Part shown: positions 2,790 to 49,468 of the stretch, piece after piece | Numbering within the stretch: position 1 is the stretch's first letter | Layout of the letters: each line of letters begins with the position of its first letter | Assembly: GCA_964549615.1 (NCBI GenBank) | Contig: CAZJVP010000051.1 | Coordinates: forward strand, 58,740-122,739 | Direction: 5' to 3' | Length of the DNA: 64,000 nt | Source of the DNA: an uncultured Thermococci archaeon | Lineage (GTDB): Archaea; CAYQAE01; CAYVLA01 | Translations under genes and position numbers: made by a program | The notes under the pieces: model-generated | What the model saw: only the letters and a program-made list of their open reading frames with translations | Databases searched by the model: none | What the model was told of the DNA's origin: nothing

Positions 2790-3749
2790 TTAGGCTAGTG
2801 CTATCAATCCCACCCCGAGGGCCATGATCGCCGCCGCGATGAGCTTCAGGTTGGTTCTCTCCTCCCCCAATATCTCGAAGCCGAACAGGACCGCGAACAT
2901 GATCGACGTCGAGCGAAGCGAGATGACGTATGAGACCTCGACCGTTCGCATGGCAAAGAGGACCAAGAGATACGAGAAGATGCACAGGAAGCCCACCGCG
3001 ATGGCTTGCCTCCAAGATTTCGACGCGCCCATCCGCATCCTCGCAAGTCCGTAGCGTCTGAGGAAGAGCGGTGAGAGGAGCAGGCCGCAGACCGTAAACG
3101 TCAGGTAGAGGTAGACCACGGGGTCGACCAGCGAAACGCCGACCTTGTCTATGGTCTGATAGAAGGATATGCAGAGACCCGTCGCGATCGCTGCTGCGGA
3201 TGCGGGGCTTGCCAACCTGGCAGCCGTTTGCCCGAGAGACAGCCCGCCCTTGGCCGGTTGATGGAAGAGATAGATGGATAGCATTGTGAGCAGAATTCCA
3301 GCCCAGCCGATGCTCGAGGGTCGCTCCCCAAGCAGCATGAGCGCCCAGGTCAGCGTGAGGACAGGCGCCAGCCCCCTGGCCAGAGGGTAGGCGTGGGACA
3401 GATCACCCCGGGAGTAGCTCCTTCCAAGGAGCAAGAAGTAGAAGCAGTATACCGAGCCGGTGCCGAGGATGCACATCCATCCCTGCCAGGGGATATCCGT
3501 GCCGGGCGCGGTCAGGAGGAAGAGAGGAGTGTACAGCAGTATCGCAGCCCAGACATACAGAAATGAGAAGAGTGCTTTGTCTTCGGACTTCTTGAAAAGG
3601 AGGTTCCAGTAGGCATGGAGCAGGGCGGAGACCAAGACGAGGGCCACTGGGAATAGGATCGTACGATCACCGGCGGGTGCAGGTACGAGATACCCGGGGA
3701 TATGAATCTCCTGTCGATCCCCATCGAGAACGCTGATATTCCAGAGCAC
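2790..3749 (-). CDS. EamA/DMT-superfamily transporter (10-TM membrane protein)
   Basis: 319 aa, ~10 hydrophobic helices in two repeated halves, typical drug/metabolite transporter size. Confidence 0.45.
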   Translation of the reverse strand: MLWNISVLDGDRQEIHIPGYLVPAPAGDRTILFPVALVLVSALLHAYWNLLFKKSEDKALFSFLYVWAAILLYTPLFLLTAPGTDIPWQGWMCILGTGSVYCFYFLLLGRSYSRGDLSHAYPLARGLAPVLTLTWALMLLGERPSSIGWAGILLTMLSIYLFHQPAKGGLSLGQTAARLASPASAAAIATGLCISFYQTIDKVGVSLVDPVVYLYLTFTVCGLLLSPLFLRRYGLARMRMGASKSWRQAIAVGFLCIFSYLLVLFAMRTVEVSYVISLRSTSIMFAVLFGFEILGEERTNLKLIAAAIMALGVGLIALA

Positions 3750-3852
3750 AATCTCGAGTTGGGATCATGCGGTGGCGGGTTGATTTTGGTCCCAGTGTCA
3801 GGGGCGAGCGCTCACAAAGCTTTTTGAAAATCCGTCTCCAGTTGAGGTTCGC

Positions 3853-10683: not shown

Positions 10684-12453
10684 CTAAAGGTAGGCCTCGG
10701 TGACGTACCGGTACATCATCCTGTTGCTGTTGAAATAGTAGGCTATCTTGCCGATCGAGTTCTTCATGAGCTCGATCCACTCGCTCCTTCTCTGGTAGAA
10801 GGTTGGGCCTATCACGTAGGAGAGCTTGCCGTATAGGTCGTCGAGTTCCCGGCTGCGGCGGGCCTCGGGGCTCAGACTCTCCTCGGGTGCCGGTCCTATG
10901 GACCAGCCGGTCACGCCCTCGATGCATCCCTCGACCCACCAGCCGTCCAAGACGCTGAAGTTAACCACGCCGTTGTGGGCCGCCTTCATGCCGCTGGTCC
11001 CGGAGGCCTCGAAGGGCGGTAGGGGCGTGTTCAGCCAGACATCGACCCCGGCGGTGAGCTTGGCCGCCATCTGCATGTTGTAGTCCTCGAGGTACACGAT
11101 GGGGATCTCGTTGCCGACCTCCCTGATGTGTCCGTGGATCTCCTCTATGAGCTGCTTGCCCCAGGTATCCTTGGGGTGTGCCTTCCCGGCGAACACGGCT
11201 TGTATCCGATGCTTCCTATTCGCGTCCTTCAGCCTTTCCAGATCCGCGAAGAGGAGGTTGGGTCGTTTGTAGGCGGTCGCCCTGCGCGCGAAACCGAGGG
11301 TCAGGACGGTGGGATCAAGGTTGATCTCTGTCTTCTTCCAGACGAAGTCAAGAAGCTCCTTCTTGGCCTGCATATGCGCGTCCCAGATCTCTTCATCCGG
11401 GATGATATCGACCCTCACGAGCAGGGCAGGCTCGTTTGCCCAGCCGGGCAGATACCTGTCGTACAGCCTCCTCATGCTCTCGCACGTCCATGTGTAGGAG
11501 TGCACGCCGTTGTTGATCGCGGTGATGTGGTGCCCCGGGAAGAGCTGCATGGAGAGATCCCTGTGCCTGTTGGCAACGCCGTTGACGTACTTGCTGAGAT
11601 TCAGGGCAAGTGCGGTCATGTTCAGCTTGTCCCGTCCGCCAAGCTGTTTGAGCAGATCCAACGGTATGATCGGCCCCATGATGGCCTGGACGAGGTCGTA
11701 GGGGAACTTGTCATGGCCCGCCTCAACCGGGGTGTGGGTGGTGAATATGCACAGGTCCCTCACCGTGTCTGGAGCCATGCCGTTCGCGCGGAGAAGCTCG
11801 ACCGCCAGCAGGCTCGAGTGGCCCTCGTTCATGTGGTATCGGCTGACCTTGAATCCCGCCGCCTCCAGCATGCGCACGCCGCCGATGCCGAGGACGATCT
11901 CCTGCTTCAACCTATACGCCTCGTCGCCGCCGTAGAGATAGTCGGTGATCGCCCTGTCTTGGGGCGCGTTGCCGTCCACATTCGTGTCCAGGAAGAGGAT
12001 TGATACCAGCCCGCCGGTGGGGCTGACGTGATCATAAAGCCACGCCTTCACGCGAACCTCCCTGCCCTCTATCTGCACCCTGACCTGACAGGGAAGCTCG
12101 TTCATGAACTTGGCAGGATCCCATTCCACGGGCTCCTCAATCTGCTTGCCTTCCTTGGTGATCCTCTGCCTCAGGTAGCCCTTCCTGCTAACCAGCGAAA
12201 CCGCGACGAGCGGTATCCTCATATCTGCGCTTGACCTTATCGTATCGCCGGCCAGTACCCCCAGTCCGCCGCTGTAGGTGGGCATGTCGTCGTTCAACCC
12301 GATCTCCATCGAGAAGTAGGCTACCCTCTTTCCCTCCAAGAAGGCGTGCCGGCAGTAGTCGCTGCAGAAGCGGTATGTCCTTCCGCGCACGTCGACCTTG
12401 TGCCTGTCTGGATCGTCTCCAATGGGGACTCCGCACTGCGGATCGATGAACAT
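10684..12453 (-). CDS. glgP: Alpha-glucan (glycogen/maltodextrin) phosphorylase, GT35, with N-terminal YHS-type metal-binding domain
   Basis: FSMEIGLNDDMPTYSGGLGVLAGD is the GT35 signature; first 40 aa DPQCGVPI...DVRGRTYRFCSDYCRHAF match YHS domain consensus (DPVCGM...YYFCSxxC). Confidence 0.7.
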   Translation of the reverse strand: MFIDPQCGVPIGDDPDRHKVDVRGRTYRFCSDYCRHAFLEGKRVAYFSMEIGLNDDMPTYSGGLGVLAGDTIRSSADMRIPLVAVSLVSRKGYLRQRITKEGKQIEEPVEWDPAKFMNELPCQVRVQIEGREVRVKAWLYDHVSPTGGLVSILFLDTNVDGNAPQDRAITDYLYGGDEAYRLKQEIVLGIGGVRMLEAAGFKVSRYHMNEGHSSLLAVELLRANGMAPDTVRDLCIFTTHTPVEAGHDKFPYDLVQAIMGPIIPLDLLKQLGGRDKLNMTALALNLSKYVNGVANRHRDLSMQLFPGHHITAINNGVHSYTWTCESMRRLYDRYLPGWANEPALLVRVDIIPDEEIWDAHMQAKKELLDFVWKKTEINLDPTVLTLGFARRATAYKRPNLLFADLERLKDANRKHRIQAVFAGKAHPKDTWGKQLIEEIHGHIREVGNEIPIVYLEDYNMQMAAKLTAGVDVWLNTPLPPFEASGTSGMKAAHNGVVNFSVLDGWWVEGCIEGVTGWSIGPAPEESLSPEARRSRELDDLYGKLSYVIGPTFYQRRSEWIELMKNSIGKIAYYFNSNRMMYRYVTEAYL

Positions 12454-12652
12454 ATGTCGTGACCTCTCAGGTCAAGTCGCGCGGACGCCGACGCCCACGT
12501 TGGCTTGGTACCTTGGAAGAGCACGGTTGCTGGGTGACCCTTGAAAATGGTTCCGCCAAAAAGGATGGTAAGTTGGAAAAAGGACAGCCAAGCATTCGAC
12601 CGCCAGAGGTTGGACCCTTTGCTAGGAGGCTTGCAGAGCCCCGTGCGGCGCC

Positions 12653-13567
12653 TCAGGGCTGCCCGCCTCCGAGTTCTATGGCCTTCCTGACGAATCCGCC
12701 CGACCTCTTGAGGAGTTCCGATGCTTTTTCACGGTCCTGACCGGTCTTGGCCATAACCAGGGCGACCTTGACGTTGTACCCTGCGTCTTGCAACAATCGG
12801 TCGGCTTCGCTCGGCGAAAGGCCGGTCGTCAGGGCAAGGATCTTCCTTGCTCTCGAGCGCAGCTTCTCGCTCCAGGGTTGCAGGTCGACCATCAAGTTGC
12901 CGTAGACCTTTCCTAGCTTGATCATGGACGCTGTGCTGATCATGGTAAGAATGAGCTTCTGGGCCGTTGCGGCCTTCATGCGGGTCGATCCGGCAATGAC
13001 CTCGGGCCCGGTGGGGACGGATATGCAGAGGTCGCATAGATCGGATAGCTCGGAGTTGGGCGTGCAGTCTATGCCCACCGTTCGTGCGCCAACCTCCTTG
13101 GCCCGCTTGAGGGCCGCAACGACCCAGGGGGTCCTCCCGCTTGCCGCAAGGCCGATCACCAGATCACCCGCGCGGACCCCGGCCTCGGACACGGCCTTCA
13201 TTCCATCGGCCGCGCTGTCCTCGGCGCCCTCCTTTGCGCGAAACACCGCGTCAGGCCCTCCCGCGATGAGACCGCGGACTAGGTCAGGGGGTGTCCTGAA
13301 CGTAGGCGGGCACTCCGCCGCGTCGATGATCCCGAGCCTGCCGCTCGTGCCGGCGCCCACGTAGAAGATTCGGCCGCCGGATCTGATCGTCTTGACGTAT
13401 CGATCCACGGCCTCGGCAATCAGAGGGATCCTGGAGGAAACGACGATGGGAACCGACTTGTCCTCCTCGTTGATGAGGGTCAGGATGTCGACGGTCTGCA
13501 TGGAGTCGATGTCCTTGGTCTTGGGATTCCTCGCCTCGGTCAGCAGCCTGTCCAAGTCAACGCCCAT
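12653..13567 (-). CDS. murQ: N-acetylmuramic acid 6-phosphate etherase (SIS domain)
   Basis: 304 aa; GGRIFYVGAGTSGRLGIIDAAECPPTF... and C-terminal MurQ/GckR-family region. Confidence 0.65.
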   Translation of the reverse strand: MGVDLDRLLTEARNPKTKDIDSMQTVDILTLINEEDKSVPIVVSSRIPLIAEAVDRYVKTIRSGGRIFYVGAGTSGRLGIIDAAECPPTFRTPPDLVRGLIAGGPDAVFRAKEGAEDSAADGMKAVSEAGVRAGDLVIGLAASGRTPWVVAALKRAKEVGARTVGIDCTPNSELSDLCDLCISVPTGPEVIAGSTRMKAATAQKLILTMISTASMIKLGKVYGNLMVDLQPWSEKLRSRARKILALTTGLSPSEADRLLQDAGYNVKVALVMAKTGQDREKASELLKRSGGFVRKAIELGGGQP

Positions 13568-13767
13568 GTGCGATCATCCATCTTGGACAAAAAGGCCACC
13601 CGGCTCCTCTCAAAAAGTTGCGTGGCGACGGACAGCTCTTGCGGCTATGCCATGGGTCTATGGTTCGTCTATGGCTCGTCTTGCACGGGACCCGGCTGTA
13701 AGACTATTCAACACCCGGCAAAGAGAAGTTTCGGAGGCCCGGATTTTTTGGCTTCGCGTGATTCGGC

Positions 13768-14100
13768 ATGATCGTGCTAGGAGGCTTGGATGGCGGAGGC
13801 ACGAAGACCCTGTGTGCCCTCGTCGATGAGAGCGGCAGGGTCCTGGCCTTGCATGCCTCAGTGACCATAGTTAGGGAAGCCGCGAAGAACCTTGCCGAGA
13901 TGGTGAGGGCGGTGGCGAGGAAGCTGGGTGTTGTCGAGAATTTCGAGCTGGCGTGCGTCGGCGGCATGTTCCGTGATGGCGAGTTGATGCTTTCCGCCTT
14001 GGATGAAGAACTGAGAATGTTTGGGCTCAGGTGCAACCTCGTCGGGCCGGAACTTCCGCCCGTCGGGGGTGCTCTGCTGATCGCATCCACGATGCTTGGG
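13768..14100 (+). pseudogene. BadF/BadG/BcrA/BcrD-type ATPase (GlcNAc kinase-like), internally deleted
   Basis: N-terminal IVLGGLDGGGTKTLCALVD (phosphate-1) is joined directly to a C-terminal-like ACVGGMFRDGE...LVGPELPPVGGALLIA; ~110 aa where ~300 expected; ORF then runs into the 36-bp repeats. Confidence 0.4.
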
Positions 14101-14208
14101 GTGCCCAGCTCGAGCGGTTTCACCGCTAGGCTCAAGAACTCGTGCTACGCGTATGTGATGCGGCAGGAGAGTGTGCCCAGCCCGAGCGGTTTCACCGCTA
14201 GGCTCAAG
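14101..14208. repeat. CRISPR-like mini-array: two 36-bp direct repeats (1 mismatch) separated by a 36-bp unique spacer
   Basis: 14101-14136 GTGCCCAGCTCGAGCGGTTTCACCGCTAGGCTCAAG; 14173-14208 same with T>C; repeat contains palindrome AGCGG-TTTCA-CCGCT. Confidence 0.5.
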
Positions 14209-14225
14209 GGGGGTCTTTCGGCGGC

Positions 14226-16415
14226 GTGGACGGTGACCAACCGATGGTTCGAATGAGGAGCGGGCATACTGAGATCGCGCTGTCACCGAGGGACGGGTTC
14301 GGTTTCTCTTCCATCCTTGACCGCAGATCGGAATTTGACTGGATCAGGGAACCGGCAGGGCCGGGGCTCTGGAGGCTTACCGGCCTGACCCCAGAGGGAG
14401 AACGCAGGGTGATCACCTCCGGGGACGCAGGGATCTTGATCCTGGAGCGGTCTAGGCGTAGCACATCGCTCGGTTTTGAGGGCCCGGAGGGAATTGGGAT
14501 ACGGGTTGGCTTGGAGGCCCAGCAACGCGACCTTCTGCTCCTGCGGCTCGAGATGCTAACGATGGATGGCCTCGCCGAGGTGGAGCGCCTGGACTTTCCG
14601 TGCCTCGCTGGCTTGGCTCTGCCCCCGGGGGATCCGGCGCTTTCCTACTTTGCCTTCCCGTTCGAGCAGGGCGTGCTCGTCCGCGATCCCGGGACGACGA
14701 TTTTTGCGAACGAGGAGGCCAATTTCCGCCTTTCCGGCACCTACCCCGGCAACTGGTCCGTGCAGTTCGTTGCGTACGGGCAGCACGGCGGCCCCGGCCT
14801 GTACCTTGCAAGCTACGACCCCCTAGGGTGCGTAAAGAGGTTCGTTGCGGAAAGAGCCGCGGACGGCCGCATCGTGTTTTGGGTCGAAAACCATCTCGTT
14901 GACCCCACGCTTCCCGGCGCACTTCCATACCCGCTCGCTATCGGAACCTACGAGGGCTCGTGGCTGGATGCGGCTCGGATCTACGCGAGTTGGGCTTCGA
15001 AACAGAGTTGGTGTTCGCGCCGTGAGCTAACATCGGGAGCCAATGGCCGGTGGGCTCAATCAACCCCCGCGTGGATCTGGAATAGAGGTAGGGCGGCAAA
15101 GGTGGTTCCCAGCGTCCTGAAGCTGTCCGACTACCTCGGTCGGCCCGTGGCCCTAGACTGGTACTGGTGGCATGGAAATCCTTACGACACGTTGCTGCCC
15201 GAGTACCTGCCCCCGAGGGACGGGGAAGAGGCCTTCAGAGAGGCGATCCGTCGCATCCACCGGATGGGATCGAGGTGCATAGCCTACATCAACGGTCGCT
15301 GTTGCGATCTGGCCTCCTCCCACTTCAGCAGCTCCGCAGCCGTCTTCAAGCGGTCTGGCGAGGTCGAGGCCGAGACCTACTGCAAGTACACTGGCGCTCG
15401 GCTGGCGGTGATGTGCCCCGCGACGGAGTACTGGAAGAGCGAGATCACAAGCATCGTCTCCAAGCTCGTTGACTACGGCCTAGACGGGGTCTACATCGAT
15501 CAGGTCGCGTCCGCTCCTCCGAGGCTCTGTTTCTCGGCAGGACACAACCACCCGAGGGGCGGGTGTCTGGCTTGGGCAGAGGGAAACAGGGCTCTGCTGA
15601 GCTCTGCAAGAGCGGCGGCGAAGGCTAGGAATCCCGAGGCAATGCTTTGCTCGGAGGGATGCTGCGAGGTTTACATGGACCTCCTAGACGCCTTCCTAAC
15701 CCTTTCCCCCTCATTTGAGAGGATGGGGATGTTCCGGTCCCTTGGGGATTCTTGGGAGCCCATACCCATGTTCAACAGCGTGTACCACCAGTTCGTGGTA
15801 ACCTTCGGATCCTATGCATCGCTGGGCAATCCCCCCTATGACGAGCTCTGGCCGCCGAGGACTTCAGCTGACGAGGCGGATCTCTCGCGGTTCACCGATC
15901 AGTTTGACTTGGAGGTCGCCCGGTGTCTCGTGTTCGGCCAAAAGCCGATGATCGCCAACTTCGAGCCTGGCCAATTGAAGCGGGCGAAGATGAAAAGGAG
16001 CCTCGATTTCTTCAGGGAGGTCTGCATGCTTCATGAACGCTTGGAGGACCACTTGGTTAGGGGTAGGTATCTCGGATCCCCGGAGGTCAGCGCCCCTCCG
16101 TTCAAAGTCCGTTGCTTCAGCAAGGGCATTTACACGCTTCCTGGACAATCGCGGACGACGGTCAGGACGGTCCCATCGATTCTGGCAAGCGCCTGGGAGG
16201 CTCCTGACGGATCGGTCGCTGTCGTTCTGGCAAACATATCGCCCCGCTTGCATCGAGTTCAACTGGACCTCTCCAAGTTCGGGGTCACCAGCGACGCGAG
16301 ATTGCTGCGCATCGAGCCGAGGGGTGGCGCACATCCTGGGCGGCAGTTGTCCGGGAGGAGGATCACGGTCCGCGGCAAGCACGTCGTGGGGCTCAAGGCG
16401 GCCGAAGGGCGATGA
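14226..16415 (+). CDS. Large hypothetical protein, possible TIM-barrel glycoside-hydrolase-like (GH114-like DGVYIDQ segment)
   Basis: 729 aa; LDWYWWHGNPYD...LVDYGLDGVYIDQVAS...; no secure family call. Confidence 0.4.
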   Translation: MDGDQPMVRMRSGHTEIALSPRDGFGFSSILDRRSEFDWIREPAGPGLWRLTGLTPEGERRVITSGDAGILILERSRRSTSLGFEGPEGIGIRVGLEAQQRDLLLLRLEMLTMDGLAEVERLDFPCLAGLALPPGDPALSYFAFPFEQGVLVRDPGTTIFANEEANFRLSGTYPGNWSVQFVAYGQHGGPGLYLASYDPLGCVKRFVAERAADGRIVFWVENHLVDPTLPGALPYPLAIGTYEGSWLDAARIYASWASKQSWCSRRELTSGANGRWAQSTPAWIWNRGRAAKVVPSVLKLSDYLGRPVALDWYWWHGNPYDTLLPEYLPPRDGEEAFREAIRRIHRMGSRCIAYINGRCCDLASSHFSSSAAVFKRSGEVEAETYCKYTGARLAVMCPATEYWKSEITSIVSKLVDYGLDGVYIDQVASAPPRLCFSAGHNHPRGGCLAWAEGNRALLSSARAAAKARNPEAMLCSEGCCEVYMDLLDAFLTLSPSFERMGMFRSLGDSWEPIPMFNSVYHQFVVTFGSYASLGNPPYDELWPPRTSADEADLSRFTDQFDLEVARCLVFGQKPMIANFEPGQLKRAKMKRSLDFFREVCMLHERLEDHLVRGRYLGSPEVSAPPFKVRCFSKGIYTLPGQSRTTVRTVPSILASAWEAPDGSVAVVLANISPRLHRVQLDLSKFGVTSDARLLRIEPRGGAHPGRQLSGRRITVRGKHVVGLKAAEGR

Positions 16416-33879: not shown

Positions 33880-34925
33880 CAGAAGTTTCCCTCCCTCTCC
33901 TTATGAATGTTCCGGCCGGTGGAGAAAGAAGAAGTAGAAAAGGTGCTCATGTGCAGGGACTATGCCCAGGGACACACAACCTACGACTGTCCCAAGTGTG
34001 GCCGCATCACTATCGTACCCTTCACGTGTAAGAGCCGCCTATCCTCGGCCTGTGGGAAGAAACACACCGACAGATGGGCAGACAAGGTCAGCGCCGAGCT
34101 TCTGGAGGTAGCCCATCGGCACATGGTCTTCACCACACCAGACAAGCTCTGGCCCCACCTGGAACAACACCGATGGCTACTCAAGGACGTCATGGACACG
34201 GTCAAAACAGCGCTGGAGGAGGTGGTAAACCACAGGTGGAAAGCCCTCCAGATAGTCCCAGGGATAATCAAGTCCTCCACACCTATGGCAGGGAATTCAA
34301 GTTCAACCCCCACATCCAGGCCATAGTGACGGACGGGGACTCAGAGAAAGGGACTAGTACGGCGGGGAGAGGCGGATGGATGTCAACTTCTTTCCCTACG
34401 AGAAGCTGAGAAAGGTGTGGCAGCACCAGCTGGTCACAGGGATCAGGGAGAAACTCCCCCACGACAAGGAGCTGCACAGCCTCCTGGACCAGCTCTACAG
34501 GGAGAAGGAGAACGGATTCTACGTCTACGCCAAGAGAAGGATCGAAGGCAAGGAGAAGGAGTTCATCTGCAGATACGTCGCAAGGTACGTCCGCCACCCA
34601 GCCATAGCTGAAACCCGAATAAACAGCTACAACCCGCACACCAGGATGGTCGAGTTCTGGTACAGACACGACGACGACACGGAAACAGTGAGCATGCACG
34701 TCTACGAGCTCATAGGCAAGCTCATAGGACACATACCACCTAGACAGTTCAAGACGATAAGGTACTACGGCCTGTACGCCAGGAACAAGAAGAGAAAGAT
34801 CCAAGATGTGCTGATTGTAGCTCACATTCTCATGAATGTTTCGCTACGAGTAGCGCCACGAGCGACGGGCGAGAAAAGTATAAATGGGGCCCTGTCTAAA
34901 GGCAAGACGGAGGGAGAATGATGCA
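33880..34925 (+). mobile_element. IS91-family-like transposase remnant (zinc-binding domain + Y2-transposase domain) split over three reading frames
   Basis: Frame 1 (33907-34326): DCPKCGRITIVPFTCKSRLSSACGKKH zinc domain; frame 3 (~34250-34330): VLHTYGREFKFNPHIQAIVTDGD (HxH motif); frame 2 (34376-34921): ...KTIRYYGLYARNKKRK (catalytic Y motif); at least 2 frameshifts. Confidence 0.5.
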
Positions 34926-36345: not shown

Positions 36346-36665
36346 TCATTGTGACTGTGACTGTGACTGTGACTGTGACTGTGACTGTGACTGTGACGGT
36401 ATCGTGGCGGATTGTGCCCAATCCGACAGTCGTGTATGGTACCTCATGGGCACAAGTGGTAGCGAATCCCCCACCAATGCAGCCCTCACGTGGAGGCCCG
36501 GGAAGGCGATGACCAGCTGCTTGCTCCCGCTGAATGCGTCCCTGATCACTAGTTCATCTTGGAGGCATCGATCTTCGCATCGACGAAGCTCCTGACGACC
36601 TTGCTGCCCTTGAACCCGGAGAGGCGCTCGGACACGATTCTAAGCAGGTGTCCTTCCATGGCCAT
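36346..36665 (-). pseudogene. Fpg/Nei fragment (copy B), N-terminal ~70 codons only, with stop + frameshift
   Basis: Minus strand reads MEGHLLRIVSERLSGFKGSKVVRSFVDAKIDASKMN*, then in another frame IRDAFSGSKQLVIAFPGLHVRAALVGDS, homologous to IREIFSRGKQLIIAFPDFHVRIHF of intact copy; homology ends at the microsatellite. Confidence 0.45.
36351..36397. repeat. Hexanucleotide microsatellite (GTGACT)x7.8
   Basis: Read directly: gtgactgtgactgtgactgtgactgtgactgtgactgtgactgtgac. Confidence 0.9.
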
Positions 36666-42079: not shown

Positions 42080-43381
42080 ATGCTCGTGGAAACTCCAGCG
42101 CAGAGCAGTAACATGCCTGCGCCCTCCGGTCAAGCTGGTGATGAGCCAGTCCACTGGCTTGCCGTCCTTTCCCTTGCATCGTGCGTCATGGGTTCGTCGG
42201 CGGCCACGGCCCTGGAGGACGGACGGATCGGGGTCCTCTACATCGGCTGCATCGCCCGTTCCCGGCCCTTCTGGGACATGAGGCAGGACCCTCTCTTCGC
42301 GCTCAGCTTCGTGCAGGCGACCCTTCGCTCGTCCGGAGCATGGGCCCCTATACAGCAGGTGTCGGGAGGAGGTGAAGTGGCCAGGATGGTGAGGCTGTAC
42401 ATGCCCCGAACCTACTCGCGGCTGACGTCGGGGTTCGATGTCATAGTCCTTTCCAACGCGAATCGATTCATGGTGGGCGTGAGCAACATCGAGATGGTCG
42501 CCCGTGCAGTCAGGGAGGGTGGCCTGGGGCTTTTCATGTCCGGAGGCTGGGAGAGCTTCGGGGGGCACAATCATCCCGACTGGGGAAGCACCTCGGTGGG
42601 CGATCTGCTTCCGACCGTGGATGTTGAGGGCTCCTGGGTGTCGCATCCGCGTGGCGACCTCAAGCTCGTGATCACCGACGAGAAGCACGAGTTCATCAGG
42701 AGCCTTCCCTGGGAGAGGGAGAAGGCGCAGTTCATGTTCGACTTCCACCACAACGTGGTCACAGCCAAAGAGGGTTCCCAGGTGCTTGCCCGGGTACGGG
42801 CTCCGGACTTGGATGATCCGGCCATGGTGAGCTGGGAGCTTGCGGGGGGAAACCGCGTCTTCGCCCTAACCGGCGAAGTCCACACGATGGCGTTAGGCCC
42901 GTGGCCGTACTACCTGGACTTCGGGGCAAACCTGATGATCTACCTTGACGGCCGCCCAGTTCCCCAAGACATCGACCTGGTGCACTCGCTCAGGACGACG
43001 ATGCACGCGGTCGCCGTAAGGAGGTCCCTGCTGATTAGCCTCCTGGAGTTCTGTGACTCCTTCGGCGCTGACACGGGCGGGATCACGGTCAGGACGGACG
43101 AGCTGGACAAGATCGCGGCGCAGGCAAAGCCCCTCTATCTGCAACTGCAGTTCCAAGAAACCCTAGACGCCTACAGGAGCGTCGAGGAGGGCCTGGCGAC
43201 GATCGAACAGGACGCAATGCGGCTGAAGGACAGAACCCTGTTTTGGATCTACATCATCGAATGGGTTGCCGTGACCGGAACCATGATGGTCTGCGGGGTC
43301 CTCCTTTGGTCGATCATGATCCGCCACAGTCTGTACAGAGAAACCCGAACGACAAGGTTGGAGCGCCTGGATCCACCCTGA
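42080..43381 (+). CDS. Paralog C of the 5-member secreted/C-terminally anchored family
   Basis: RIGVLYIGCIARS...DVIVLSNANRF...GLGLFMSGGWESFGG...LKDRTLFWIYIIEWVAVTGTMMVCGVLLWSIMIRHSLYRE. Confidence 0.6.
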   Translation: MLVETPAQSSNMPAPSGQAGDEPVHWLAVLSLASCVMGSSAATALEDGRIGVLYIGCIARSRPFWDMRQDPLFALSFVQATLRSSGAWAPIQQVSGGGEVARMVRLYMPRTYSRLTSGFDVIVLSNANRFMVGVSNIEMVARAVREGGLGLFMSGGWESFGGHNHPDWGSTSVGDLLPTVDVEGSWVSHPRGDLKLVITDEKHEFIRSLPWEREKAQFMFDFHHNVVTAKEGSQVLARVRAPDLDDPAMVSWELAGGNRVFALTGEVHTMALGPWPYYLDFGANLMIYLDGRPVPQDIDLVHSLRTTMHAVAVRRSLLISLLEFCDSFGADTGGITVRTDELDKIAAQAKPLYLQLQFQETLDAYRSVEEGLATIEQDAMRLKDRTLFWIYIIEWVAVTGTMMVCGVLLWSIMIRHSLYRETRTTRLERLDPP

Positions 43382-44721: not shown

Positions 44722-46044
44722 TTGGGAGGTCGGGAGGGGTGGCCGGGCCCGTTGGTGGTGGTGTCGGAAGATTCTTATCCGTTCTGGACCGAAGCGGGGT
44801 GGATGCTGGAGAATCGCCTTCTCCTCATAGCCGTCATCGCTGCGATCGCGGTGGGGCAAGCACGCCAGGGTTTGGCTCTGGAGGACCGCCGGATCGGCGT
44901 CCTGTACGTGAGCGATCCCATCAGGTCACCCGCCTTCACCTTCATGCGCGCCGAGCCCATCTTCTCCCTCACCTTCGTGGCCGCCTCCCTGAGGGGCTTC
45001 GGGGGCTGGGATCTGGACGACGTCCACAGGGCGATACGGCTCTATTTCCCGCGCATGTACCAGGATCTGACAAGCCGATTCGATGTCGTGGTCCTTGACA
45101 ATGCGAACCAGATGGCGATTACGCCTGAGCAGATCGAGCTGTTGGCACGGGGAGTGAGGGAGGCTGGCATAGGATTGCTCATGACGGGTGGCTGGGAAAG
45201 CTTCGGCGGCACGGGGACGGCCCAGCCCTCATGGGGCCCGACCGCGATCGGCGCCCTTCTTCCCGTCCAGTGCGTCGACGGCACATGGGTCGAATCGGGC
45301 AGGCTCGTCATCGACGAGCCGGAGCACGAGTTCGTGGCAAGCATCCCATGGGACCGCAAGGGCCCATTCATGCAGTCCTTCCACCACAACCTGGTCACCG
45401 TCAGGGAGGGGGGACAGTTGCTCGCCCATACCGACCGCAACCGGTATCAACCTGGTGGCGACCACCCGCTTTTCATCACGTGGGAGGTGGAAGGGGCAAG
45501 GGTCTTCGCGTGCACGGGCGAGATAGTCCAGATGGCATCGATCTTCAGCTACGGCGGCACGAACTACGACATCTGGGAGTACTACGGGGATTTCATAAGC
45601 AACCTGATGATCTACCTCGACAAGCGCCCGGTGCCCCAGGATGTCGATCTCGTCCATGCCGTGAGGTCGACGGCATTCCAAAGCAGGACCAGGGTCTCCC
45701 TGCTCTTGAGCCTCGTTGAGTTCGTCGAGTCCTTCGGGGCGAACGGCCAGGGGGTGATGCGCTCAGTCGACGAGCTGAACGGGGTCGTCGCCCAGGCCGA
45801 CGGTGCGTACCTTGACCTCAACTTCGAGGAGGTTCTGGAAATCTATCGCCGGATCGGAACGATGCTCGATGACATCGAAAAGCAGGCGCTTGAGCTCAAG
45901 GACCGAACGCTTCTCTGGGTCTACCTCGTCGAGTGGCTCGCGGTGACCGGAACCGCTCTGCTCGCCGGCTTCATCTTGTGGACGACCATGGTCCGGCGGA
46001 GATTCTACAAGGAGATGAAGGTCACTAGAATCGCGGCCCTCTAG
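44722..46044 (+). CDS. Paralog D of the 5-member family
   Basis: RIGVLYVSDPIRS...DVVVLDNANQM...GIGLLMTGGWESFGG...LKDRTLLWVYLVEWLAVTGTALLAGFILWTTMVRRRFYKE. Confidence 0.6.
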   Translation: MGGREGWPGPLVVVSEDSYPFWTEAGWMLENRLLLIAVIAAIAVGQARQGLALEDRRIGVLYVSDPIRSPAFTFMRAEPIFSLTFVAASLRGFGGWDLDDVHRAIRLYFPRMYQDLTSRFDVVVLDNANQMAITPEQIELLARGVREAGIGLLMTGGWESFGGTGTAQPSWGPTAIGALLPVQCVDGTWVESGRLVIDEPEHEFVASIPWDRKGPFMQSFHHNLVTVREGGQLLAHTDRNRYQPGGDHPLFITWEVEGARVFACTGEIVQMASIFSYGGTNYDIWEYYGDFISNLMIYLDKRPVPQDVDLVHAVRSTAFQSRTRVSLLLSLVEFVESFGANGQGVMRSVDELNGVVAQADGAYLDLNFEEVLEIYRRIGTMLDDIEKQALELKDRTLLWVYLVEWLAVTGTALLAGFILWTTMVRRRFYKEMKVTRIAAL

Positions 46045-47818: not shown

Positions 47819-49159
47819 TCAGGTCTTCTGTGCATGTAGCTTGGTTGTGTGGACCTCTCTCCATAGCCTGCGGCGCACCATAACCGACCACAGCACGAAG
47901 CCCGTCACCACTGCCGTTGCGGTCACCGTCAACCATTCGATCACATATACCCAGAGGAGGGCGCGGTCCTTGAGTTCCATGGCGTCTTTCTCTATCTCGC
48001 CAAGCGCTTCGTGGGCCTGCTCGTAGGCCTCAACCACATCCTCGAAGCGAAGCTCAAGATAGGCGGGCAGGGCGTCGAGCGCGATGCGGTTTGCTTCGTC
48101 CAACCTCATATTGATCGAGTTCGTGTTTGCGCCGAAGGAGTCGCAGAATTCCAGAAGGCCGACCAAGAGCGACTTCCGGGTGCCGAACTCGAACATGCTC
48201 TTCCTCACTCGATGGACAAGCTCCACATCCTGGGGCACGGGCCGCCGATCGAGGTAGATCATGAGGTTGGCACCGAAGTCCAGGGCGTATTCCCAGGGGT
48301 CGCCAGGAGTGCACATGGTGTGCAACTGGTAGGGCTCGGAACTGGGCCCGAAGATCTCGCCCGTGATCGAGAAGGTTCGGCCCCCGCCCGGCAGATCCCA
48401 GGTGACGAAGCCCGGGTCATCCTTGTACCCGGGTCCCTCGACGTGTGCCAGCACCAAGGATCCCGGCTTCGCCTTCACCAGGTTGTGGTGGTAGTTGTAC
48501 ATGAAAGGCTGGGTCCTGTCCCATGGCAGGCTGCTCATGAACTCGTGATCGGGCATGTCGATGACGAGTGTGTGGACGTTGGCCGGGCGGTGGATGTAGA
48601 TGTTGCCCGCATCCTCGGTGGGAAGCAGCTGGCCTATGGCCGAGTCGCCCCAGGGCGGCCTCCCGAACGCGCCGCCGAAGCTCTCCCACCCACCCACCAT
48701 GACAAGTCCCATGCCGGCCTCCCGCACGCCACGCGCCAGCATCTCGATGTGCGTCGGTGGGATCGCTTCCCTGTTTGCGTTGGACAGGATGATGACATCG
48801 AAGCGGGATGTCAGGTCCGAAAAGGACCGTGGCATATACAGCCTCACGATCCTGTAGATCTCGCCCTCACCCTTGGTGGCCTGGATGGGCGCCAGGGCGG
48901 CCCAGTCGCGGAGCGTTGCCTGGACGAAGTTGATCGAGAAGAGGGGATCGGACCTCATCCACCAGATCGGCGTGGAACGGGCAAGGCAGCCGGCGTAAAG
49001 CACCCCTATTCTTCCGTCCTGAAGGGCCGTCGTCGTTGAGAGAGCCGCTTGAAGGGCAAGGAGCACGGCAGCCGCTAGGGCTGGGCGGCAGCCAAGCTTG
49101 TGAGCGAAGCCTGCCTGCAGCGACACAGGGGTCGTGCGGCTGACGGCGGCCATGCTCAC
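47819..49159 (-). CDS. Paralog E of the 5-member family
   Basis: RIGVLYAGCLARS...DVIILSNANRE...GMGLVMVGGWESFGG...LKDRALLWVYVIEWLTVTATAVVTGFVLWSVMVRRRLWRE. Confidence 0.6.
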   Translation of the reverse strand: MSMAAVSRTTPVSLQAGFAHKLGCRPALAAAVLLALQAALSTTTALQDGRIGVLYAGCLARSTPIWWMRSDPLFSINFVQATLRDWAALAPIQATKGEGEIYRIVRLYMPRSFSDLTSRFDVIILSNANREAIPPTHIEMLARGVREAGMGLVMVGGWESFGGAFGRPPWGDSAIGQLLPTEDAGNIYIHRPANVHTLVIDMPDHEFMSSLPWDRTQPFMYNYHHNLVKAKPGSLVLAHVEGPGYKDDPGFVTWDLPGGGRTFSITGEIFGPSSEPYQLHTMCTPGDPWEYALDFGANLMIYLDRRPVPQDVELVHRVRKSMFEFGTRKSLLVGLLEFCDSFGANTNSINMRLDEANRIALDALPAYLELRFEDVVEAYEQAHEALGEIEKDAMELKDRALLWVYVIEWLTVTATAVVTGFVLWSVMVRRRLWREVHTTKLHAQKT

Positions 49160-49384: not shown

Positions 49385-49468
49385 GGCGCACGGGCCTTGG
49401 CACGGGTTGACCTCTTGGCACGGGTTGACCTCTTGGCACGGGTTGACCTCTTGGCACGAGTTGACCCC
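49385..49468. repeat. 18-bp tandem repeat (TTGGCACGGGTTGACCTC) x4 plus partial leading copy, in 600-bp divergent intergenic region
   Basis: Read directly 49397-49468; last unit variant ttggcacgagttgacccc. Confidence 0.85.

Follow-up and report, generated by a model that had tools for sequence, protein, structure and literature searches.

In a 64-kb stretch (64,000 nt, hereafter the window) of contig CAZJVP010000051.1, assigned to an uncultured Thermococci archaeon, the open reading frame (ORF) at 13768-14256 (+) encodes a 162-aa protein and, toward its 3' end, contains two near-identical 36-nt direct repeats on either side of a 36-nt insert. This arrangement has the look of a minimal CRISPR array. 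The best reading of the locus is that of a decayed BadF-type kinase remnant in an archaeal murQ-kinase-DUF6259 sugar-salvage cluster, and we consider it likely that the repeat-insert-repeat is a mutational scar in the coding sequence of this dead gene and not a working CRISPR array. Comparison with syntenic relatives shows two changes in this lineage, the loss of about 197 internal kinase codons and an in-frame insertion of 72 bp close to the 3' end of the gene. The locus is one of ordinary gene decay with an unusual scar, and annotators should label the ORF a kinase remnant and should not call the repeat pair CRISPR.

The Kinase Remnant and Its Full-Length Relatives

BadF/BadG/BcrA/BcrD proteins are ASKHA sugar kinases (PF01869) that include the N-acetylglucosamine (GlcNAc) and N-acetylmuramic acid (MurNAc) kinases adjoining murQ. 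The remnant shares with them a DGGGTKT phosphate loop at the N-terminus, the C-terminal subdomain, the ..GF.ARLK.. tail and the adjacency to murQ, but it lacks about 197 central codons and carries a 24-codon insertion that doubles the tail motif. The PF01869 profile matches the ORF in two stretches with 35.6 bits (gathering cut-off 31.5), and remnant residues 32-106 correspond to profile positions 196-271 of 271. An exhaustive HMMER search with the remnant gave 352 matches at E <= 1e-3, nearly all of them about 300-330 aa long, which cover remnant residues 1 to about 30 and then a second stretch from ~30 to ~125. Of the full-length homologues the closest is P0069 (328 aa, 54% identical), which pairs with the remnant over its residues 1 to about 31 and then 228-320. 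The 162-aa product, in place of about 328 aa, has no equivalents of P0069 residues ~32-227 and so does not form the complete two-domain ASKHA fold of about 300-330 aa with its central phosphate-2 and connect motifs. An earlier note on this DNA, made from the letters alone, had described an internally deleted kinase whose N-terminal loop is joined to a C-terminal segment, and both the profile match and the P0069 alignment bear this out.

Four loci served for comparison, namely L003, L004 and L005 on contigs of relatives and L006 in a Hadarchaeota metagenome-assembled genome, which is the only close locus in GTDB. The gene order phosphorylase - murQ <-> kinase - DUF6259 is kept in all of these contigs and in the GTDB genome, with DUF6259 orthologues 55-72% identical and in the same position, and the four kinases are full length (326-328 aa). 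Measured against L003, L004 and L006, the ~197 missing codons include the central ASKHA motifs GTGS and GGWG..DEGS, and with these lost the remnant should be incapable of acting as a kinase. No second BadF kinase was found in 72.5 kb (the window and its 8.5-kb left flank). In this murQ-linked cluster for sugar salvage, the relatives have kept the kinase step and the window lineage has lost it. The GC content of the remnant ORF by codon position (0.59/0.49/0.75) is like that of neighbouring genes.

The deletion was mapped by pairwise DNA alignment to the kinase genes of L003, L004 and L006, and its junction lies at 13859-13869 (+). Homology to the N-terminal part of the relatives ends at 13868 and homology to the C-terminal part begins at 13866, with the trinucleotide CAT (13866-13868) common to both. 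In L004 coordinates 592 nt are deleted, and one extra nucleotide a few bases upstream, near 13862, brings the net loss to 591 nt, or 197 codons, and restores the frame; this single base is a tentative call, as it comes from an alignment of sequences only ~65-70% identical. A deletion that is not a multiple of three, together with a frame-restoring base, hints at either selection for an open frame or a single error-prone event.

The second change lies ~235-270 bp downstream of this junction. The first repeat copy (R1, 14101-14136, +) encodes VPSSSGFTARLK, the insert (14137-14172, +; AACTCGTGCTACGCGTATGTGATGCGGCAGGAGAGT) encodes NSCYAYVMRQES in frame and the second copy (R2, 14173-14208, +) encodes VPSPSGFTARLK. 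The two copies, of 36 nt each, are identical at 35 of 36 positions (T/C at repeat position 10), and their starts are 72 nt apart, which leaves 36 nt between them. Since the bases just outside R1 and R2 differ, the repeat is exactly 36 nt; it reads GTGCCCAGC..GGCTCAAG, with G at both ends, and holds the palindrome AGCGG-TTTCA-CCGCT (14113-14127 and 14185-14199). The coordinates, the exact 36/36/36 geometry and the palindrome given in the earlier note were thus all reproduced. Within the 64-kb window the unit occurs at these two sites only when up to three mismatches are allowed, and two matches were obtained in 0 of 100 shuffles. An assembly artefact can be set aside, because three assemblies with single-nucleotide polymorphisms between them elsewhere agree at every base of the locus. 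As a minor feature, the hexamer GGGGGT opens both the 36 nt upstream of R1 (14065-14070) and the sequence that follows R2 (14209-14214), at a distance of exactly 144 nt; the background rate is ~7e-4 per position pair, both hexamers encode Gly-Gly, and the coincidence may be due to chance.

The relatives provide empty sites for this structure. Each of their four kinases has a single copy of the motif equivalent to the repeat (..GFAARLE..). R1 is collinear with the kinase sequence upstream of it, and its peptide VPSSSGFTARLK aligns on the C-terminal motif of full-length relatives, which in P0069 reads TRPAEGFAARLE; a tblastn alignment of P0069 runs through 14139. R2 is collinear with the downstream tail, and the GGLSAAW.. 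that follows it, at the beginning of the original kinase tail and stop (14209-14256, +), aligns with EGLSEVG.. of the relatives. In DNA alignment the relatives run collinear both with the upstream flank plus R1 and with R2 plus the downstream flank; the window is longer by 72 bases, and the removal of either repeat-plus-insert unit restores collinearity with all four loci. With flanks that are collinear with single-copy relatives, it is the window lineage that gained a 72-bp in-frame insertion, made up of a 36-bp target duplication and 36 bp of other DNA. The peptide (V/T)P..GF(T/A)ARL(K/E) is conserved in orthologues and in distant BadF kinases, and against homologues' kinase tails the BLOSUM62 score of the repeat peptide is 24-28. 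The relatives' loci lack the palindrome in the same DNA alignments.

Searches of 5.8 billion clustered proteins and of 1.84 billion representatives turned up no homologue with the doubled architecture. One protein that seemed to span both repeat copies, P0091, is unrelated and has five near-identical internal repeats, so that its E-value sums five copies of one weak match. Another idea was that the insert is a tail that some other kinase allele naturally carries. The match of P0074 in BLASTP (LK--CYTLQTRE) is a chance one, as the observed maximum among 136 homologue tails was 17 and the null mean was 17.2.

Likeness to a CRISPR Array

The earlier note had proposed that the structure could be a minimal, orphan or degenerate CRISPR array. 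The locus is indeed similar to an array in that two near-identical 36-nt repeats with a hairpin enclose one unique 36-nt sequence, and the lengths fall within the usual geometry (repeats of ~23-47 bp and unique spacers of similar length), although at the minimum possible size; the usual rules of array detection ask for at least three repeats. What separates it from an array is its location inside an ORF with host-like codon periodicity, where the repeat encodes a conserved kinase motif that is single-copy in every syntenic relative and where kinase coding sequence stands upstream in place of a non-coding leader. That the locus is a real array, orphan or degenerate, whose transcript is processed to one CRISPR RNA is accordingly highly improbable, and the proposal is not upheld.

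The searches point in the same direction. PADLOC, with its cas models included, finds no cas genes among the 58 ORFs of the window, in agreement with the earlier note, and the gene calls of the contig flanks, 8.5 kb on the left and 9.1 kb on the right, include none. In all, the searches for cas genes, arrays and further copies covered 81.6 kb of the 152.7-kb contig. There are no array-like repeats elsewhere in the window or in the flanks, no further copy of the repeat in the 17 loci searched, and no Rfam match at the locus, whether at the gathering threshold or at E <= 10. An exact 22-mer of the repeat has 0 matches in 185,579 GTDB species genomes and in the JGI metagenomes; these two collections do not hold the window's own contig, and this negative therefore says nothing on the rest of the genome. 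The search of the insert as a spacer against virus and plasmid databases, suggested in the earlier note, yielded nothing beyond chance: there was no match to phage records, only chance matches to plasmids (E = 4), three 18-mer matches in IMG/VR of which none extends, and none in the JGI metagenomes. Real spacers often have no database match, and the missing protospacer carries little weight. Combined with the coding origin of the repeat, these results, which include the absence of cas genes and other arrays from the 81.6 kb, in practice rule out an array, whether working or degenerate.

The earlier note had also held that a unit found nowhere else, with a peptide conserved in orthologues, would speak for a coding tandem duplication instead of an array. 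The unit was found nowhere else that was searched and the peptide is conserved, so the array falls essentially on these grounds; the coding tandem duplication itself is not quite right, as the insert is unrelated to its flanks. In this respect the locus is a worked example of an array-like false positive that is resolved by means of orthologous empty sites.

Possible Origins of the Probable Scar

Any account of the scar has to explain the insert, which matches neither flank. Its identities with the 36 nt on either side are 5/36 and 10/36, and global alignment gives P = 0.59 and 0.90. This lack of relation to the flanks excludes a simple tandem duplication of 72 bp, and such a duplication followed by divergence is likewise excluded because the repeats are 97% identical. 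A local source for the insert, either nearby or in the deleted part of the kinase, was sought and rejected, with no gapped or ungapped match beyond shuffles in the window, in 17.6 kb of additional contig flanks or in L003, L004 and L006.

Under the preferred reading, a duplication accompanied by insertion, either as a single event or as several clustered ones, would have produced the scar during replication or repair. Template switching of the microhomology-mediated break-induced replication or fork stalling and template switching type (MMBIR/FoSTeS) could do so, in which case the insert would have been copied from a distant template. Such rearrangements are known from Escherichia coli and eukaryotes and are marked by clustered breakpoints, microhomology, small nearby errors and insertions from distant templates; to our knowledge the mechanism has not been documented in archaea. 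The locus is similar to them in having its breakpoints within 350 bp, microhomology at a junction, a single-base error near a breakpoint and a duplication with inserted junction sequence, and it differs from them in that no template was found for the 36-nt insert. The three anomalies (the deletion with CAT microhomology, the extra base and the duplication with insertion) all fall inside 350 bp, as would be expected of either a complex replicative rearrangement or the serial decay of a dead gene. We put an origin by template switching in replication or repair at close to an even chance, if slightly below it. The suggestion in the earlier note that the repeats might be a recombination scar from the deletion comes close in spirit, but they sit downstream of the deletion junction and not at it. 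The element itself appears to have no function of its own.

Several observations weigh against a scar of this kind. A clean-edged 36-bp duplication around a 36-bp insert is unlike the usual product of slippage, and repair filler is normally shorter and locally copied, whereas no template for the insert was found within 81.6 kb. The sizes of repeat and insert also lie within the canonical ranges for CRISPR repeats and spacers, which has to be taken as coincidence. Finally, the translational coupling that is used below to explain the open frame is derived only from an ATGA overlap and the preserved frame.

An alternative that would account for the sizes is that the host's Cas1-Cas2 integrase attacked the kinase gene at two points staggered by 36 bp and placed a prespacer of 36 bp there, with gap repair then duplicating the 36-bp target. 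This possibility is the main rival for the origin step only, and it is held tentatively, as less probable than template switching. Spacer integration produces a target-site duplication of repeat length, which is unusually long compared with those of transposons, around inserts of 30-40 bp (PMC4940900). The locus has exactly this anatomy: the insert is unique, and the flanks on its two sides line up with the empty sites in L003, L004, L005 and L006; the repeat begins and ends with G and holds a hairpin, and the insert is without a local template. The in vitro behavior of Pyrococcus furiosus Cas1-Cas2 is comparable, with off-target integration at repeat-like sites, a stagger of repeat length and G/C at the attack sites (PMC6698737). 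The host is archaeal, moreover, and archaea usually have CRISPR-Cas, with ~90% carrying it (PMC4940900). The literature on Hadarchaeota and CRISPR yielded no figures for repeat length. In E. coli, off-target integration into non-CRISPR DNA has been described in vivo (Nivala et al., 2018, as related in PMC7054753 and bioRxiv 10.1101/148544). The 'neo-CRISPR' loci of that work (Nivala, Shipman and Church, 2018), as far as they are described in PMC7054753, PMC6698737 and bioRxiv 10.1101/148544, have in common with the present locus a repeat-length duplication around a spacer-length insert at a non-CRISPR site with intact flanks. They differ in having been made with over-expressed E. coli Cas1-Cas2 and in having a 28-bp duplication, and the scar is at most a candidate member of this group.

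The evidence against an integrase origin is of several kinds. No cas gene or array lies in the 81.6 kb, and no protospacer was found in phages, plasmids, IMG/VR or JGI metagenomes, nor any source of the insert in the window, its flanks or the relatives. Naturally fixed examples of off-target integration are only circumstantial in the literature (bioRxiv 10.1101/148544). That the scar lies no more than 270 bp from a second rearrangement in this small gene would have to be a coincidence, and the locus was picked for its CRISPR look, which introduces a selection bias. It is thus possible, but doubtful, that the scar is a naturally fixed off-target CRISPR adaptation, in effect a wild one-spacer 'neo-CRISPR' seed that has no leader or function and that can be dated by the empty sites in its relatives. 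Were this so, the locus would join a very small number of natural records of off-target spacer acquisition, and it would bear on the birth of new CRISPR arrays and on the genomic cost of adaptation. If the scar is instead a product of replication or repair in a gene under decay, its importance hardly goes further than annotation.

There is also a slim chance that the structure is what remains of a larger one that has collapsed. This could have been a large tandem duplication with a breakpoint at the start of the repeat, or the attL/attR pair of an integrated element, of which nearly everything was lost and 36 bp was left. Both processes can leave direct repeats around unrelated DNA, and integrative elements that target the 3' ends of genes duplicate that end. 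However, two events would be needed, with one deletion endpoint that leaves just 36 bp, and no integrase or element remnant is present at the site. No second copy of the insert lies in the 22 kb upstream of it or in the 59 kb downstream, so a duplicated unit would need to exceed these distances.

A further question is why the ORF has remained open. Together, the three length changes (the 592-nt deletion, the extra base and the 72-nt insertion) leave it intact. The stop codon of the remnant (TGA, 14254-14256) overlaps the start codon of the DUF6259 gene (ATG at 14253) in an ATGA, and the same 4-nt overlap is found in L003-L005, with 1 nt as listed for L006. The DUF6259 gene is probably translationally coupled to the kinase ORF through this overlap, such that ribosomes would have to reach the end of the remnant in order to reinitiate at the DUF6259 start, and this is probably why the frame has been kept. 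Selection would then act on read-through to the reinitiation point and not on the protein itself.

The open frame could also indicate that the remnant is a functional protein, in which the doubled C-terminal peptide and the 12-residue linker are kept for a role at the protein level. The ORF is open over its whole length, the 592-nt deletion was followed by restoration of the frame, and the insertion is in frame and without stops. The insert has a GC content at third codon positions (GC3) of 0.83 in the phase of the ORF, like host genes, with P ~0.02 for that frame and ~0.06 when all three frames are allowed. Coupling to the downstream gene explains the open frame equally well, however, and the central ASKHA motifs are gone. 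In addition, no homologue has the doubled architecture, the apparent matches to a second copy being the chance tail and the spurious repeat protein described above. A selected coding duplication is therefore improbable.

Even less credence is given to the idea that the repeats form a pair of hairpins or operators through which the DUF6259 gene would be regulated, either in the DNA or in the mRNA; we see scarcely any chance of this. Two identical palindromes do lie 72 bp apart and at least 45 nt upstream of the DUF6259 start, and in RNAfold the palindrome extends to an interrupted hairpin of 10 pairs. The hairpin is a weak one that surpasses shuffles only moderately (z = -2.0 to -3.0), and over its full length the region folds no better than they do (z = -1.0 and -1.6). 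Furthermore, the palindrome and the duplication are both missing from the four relatives, which have the same operon.

Neighbouring Genes and the Wider Window

The remnant diverges from a murQ-like MurNAc 6-phosphate etherase with SIS domains (12653-13567, -; Pfam GKRP_SIS_N 3e-17, SIS 5e-12). Downstream in the operon lies the gene for a 720-aa DUF6259 protein (14253-16415, +), identified by gene calls and by PF19773 at 3e-85. In the window (10684-16415) and in L003-L006, the murQ-type etherase, the BadF kinase and the glycosidase-like DUF6259 protein stand beside genes of glycogen metabolism, and the composition of the cluster suggests a possible role in the salvage of bacterial cell-wall or other lactyl-ether sugars. 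The alpha-glucan phosphorylase of this group (10684-12453) has an N-terminal YHS (metal-binding) domain, a fusion that is kept in L003-L005. Between murQ and the kinase, the motif CTGTAAGACTATTCAAC (13696-13712, +) is kept in L003, L004 and L005 and is only degenerate in the Hadarchaeota locus L006. Within otherwise diverged intergenic DNA, GTAAGACTATTCAA is identical in the window, in L003 (~3335-3351) and in L004 (~3823-3839). CTGTAAGACTATTCAAC may be a candidate shared promoter or operator of the divergent murQ/kinase pair. A scan for sigma-70 promoters and terminators returned nothing useful, and the host is in any case archaeal.

Genes for an XPG-type flap endonuclease (FEN1) and for GatD/GatE, which are archaeal markers, lie in the contig flanks (L015 2717-3622; L017 2889-6119), and on this basis the window is archaeal although it carries murQ. 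With its three-gene synteny shared with the Hadarchaeota genome of L006, the host is probably a relation of Hadarchaeota. A contig with the left part of the region belongs to IMG 3300022548, a co-assembly of a hot-spring mat from Cone Pool (PMC7490370).

Elsewhere in the window, an IS91-family transposase is split into two adjacent ORFs, with Zn_Tnp_IS91 at 33907-34323 and Y2_Tnp at 34376-34918, and probably represents an insertion sequence in decay after a frameshift. Two tandem repeats, perfect or nearly so, are found at 36350-36397 and 49396-49466, these being (TGTGAC)x8 and 3.9 copies of the 18-nt unit CTTGGCACGGGTTGACCT. Lastly, three paralogues of ~430-446 aa with weak GATase1_like matches lie within 7 kb on both strands, at 42080-43378, 44722-46041 and 47819-49159.

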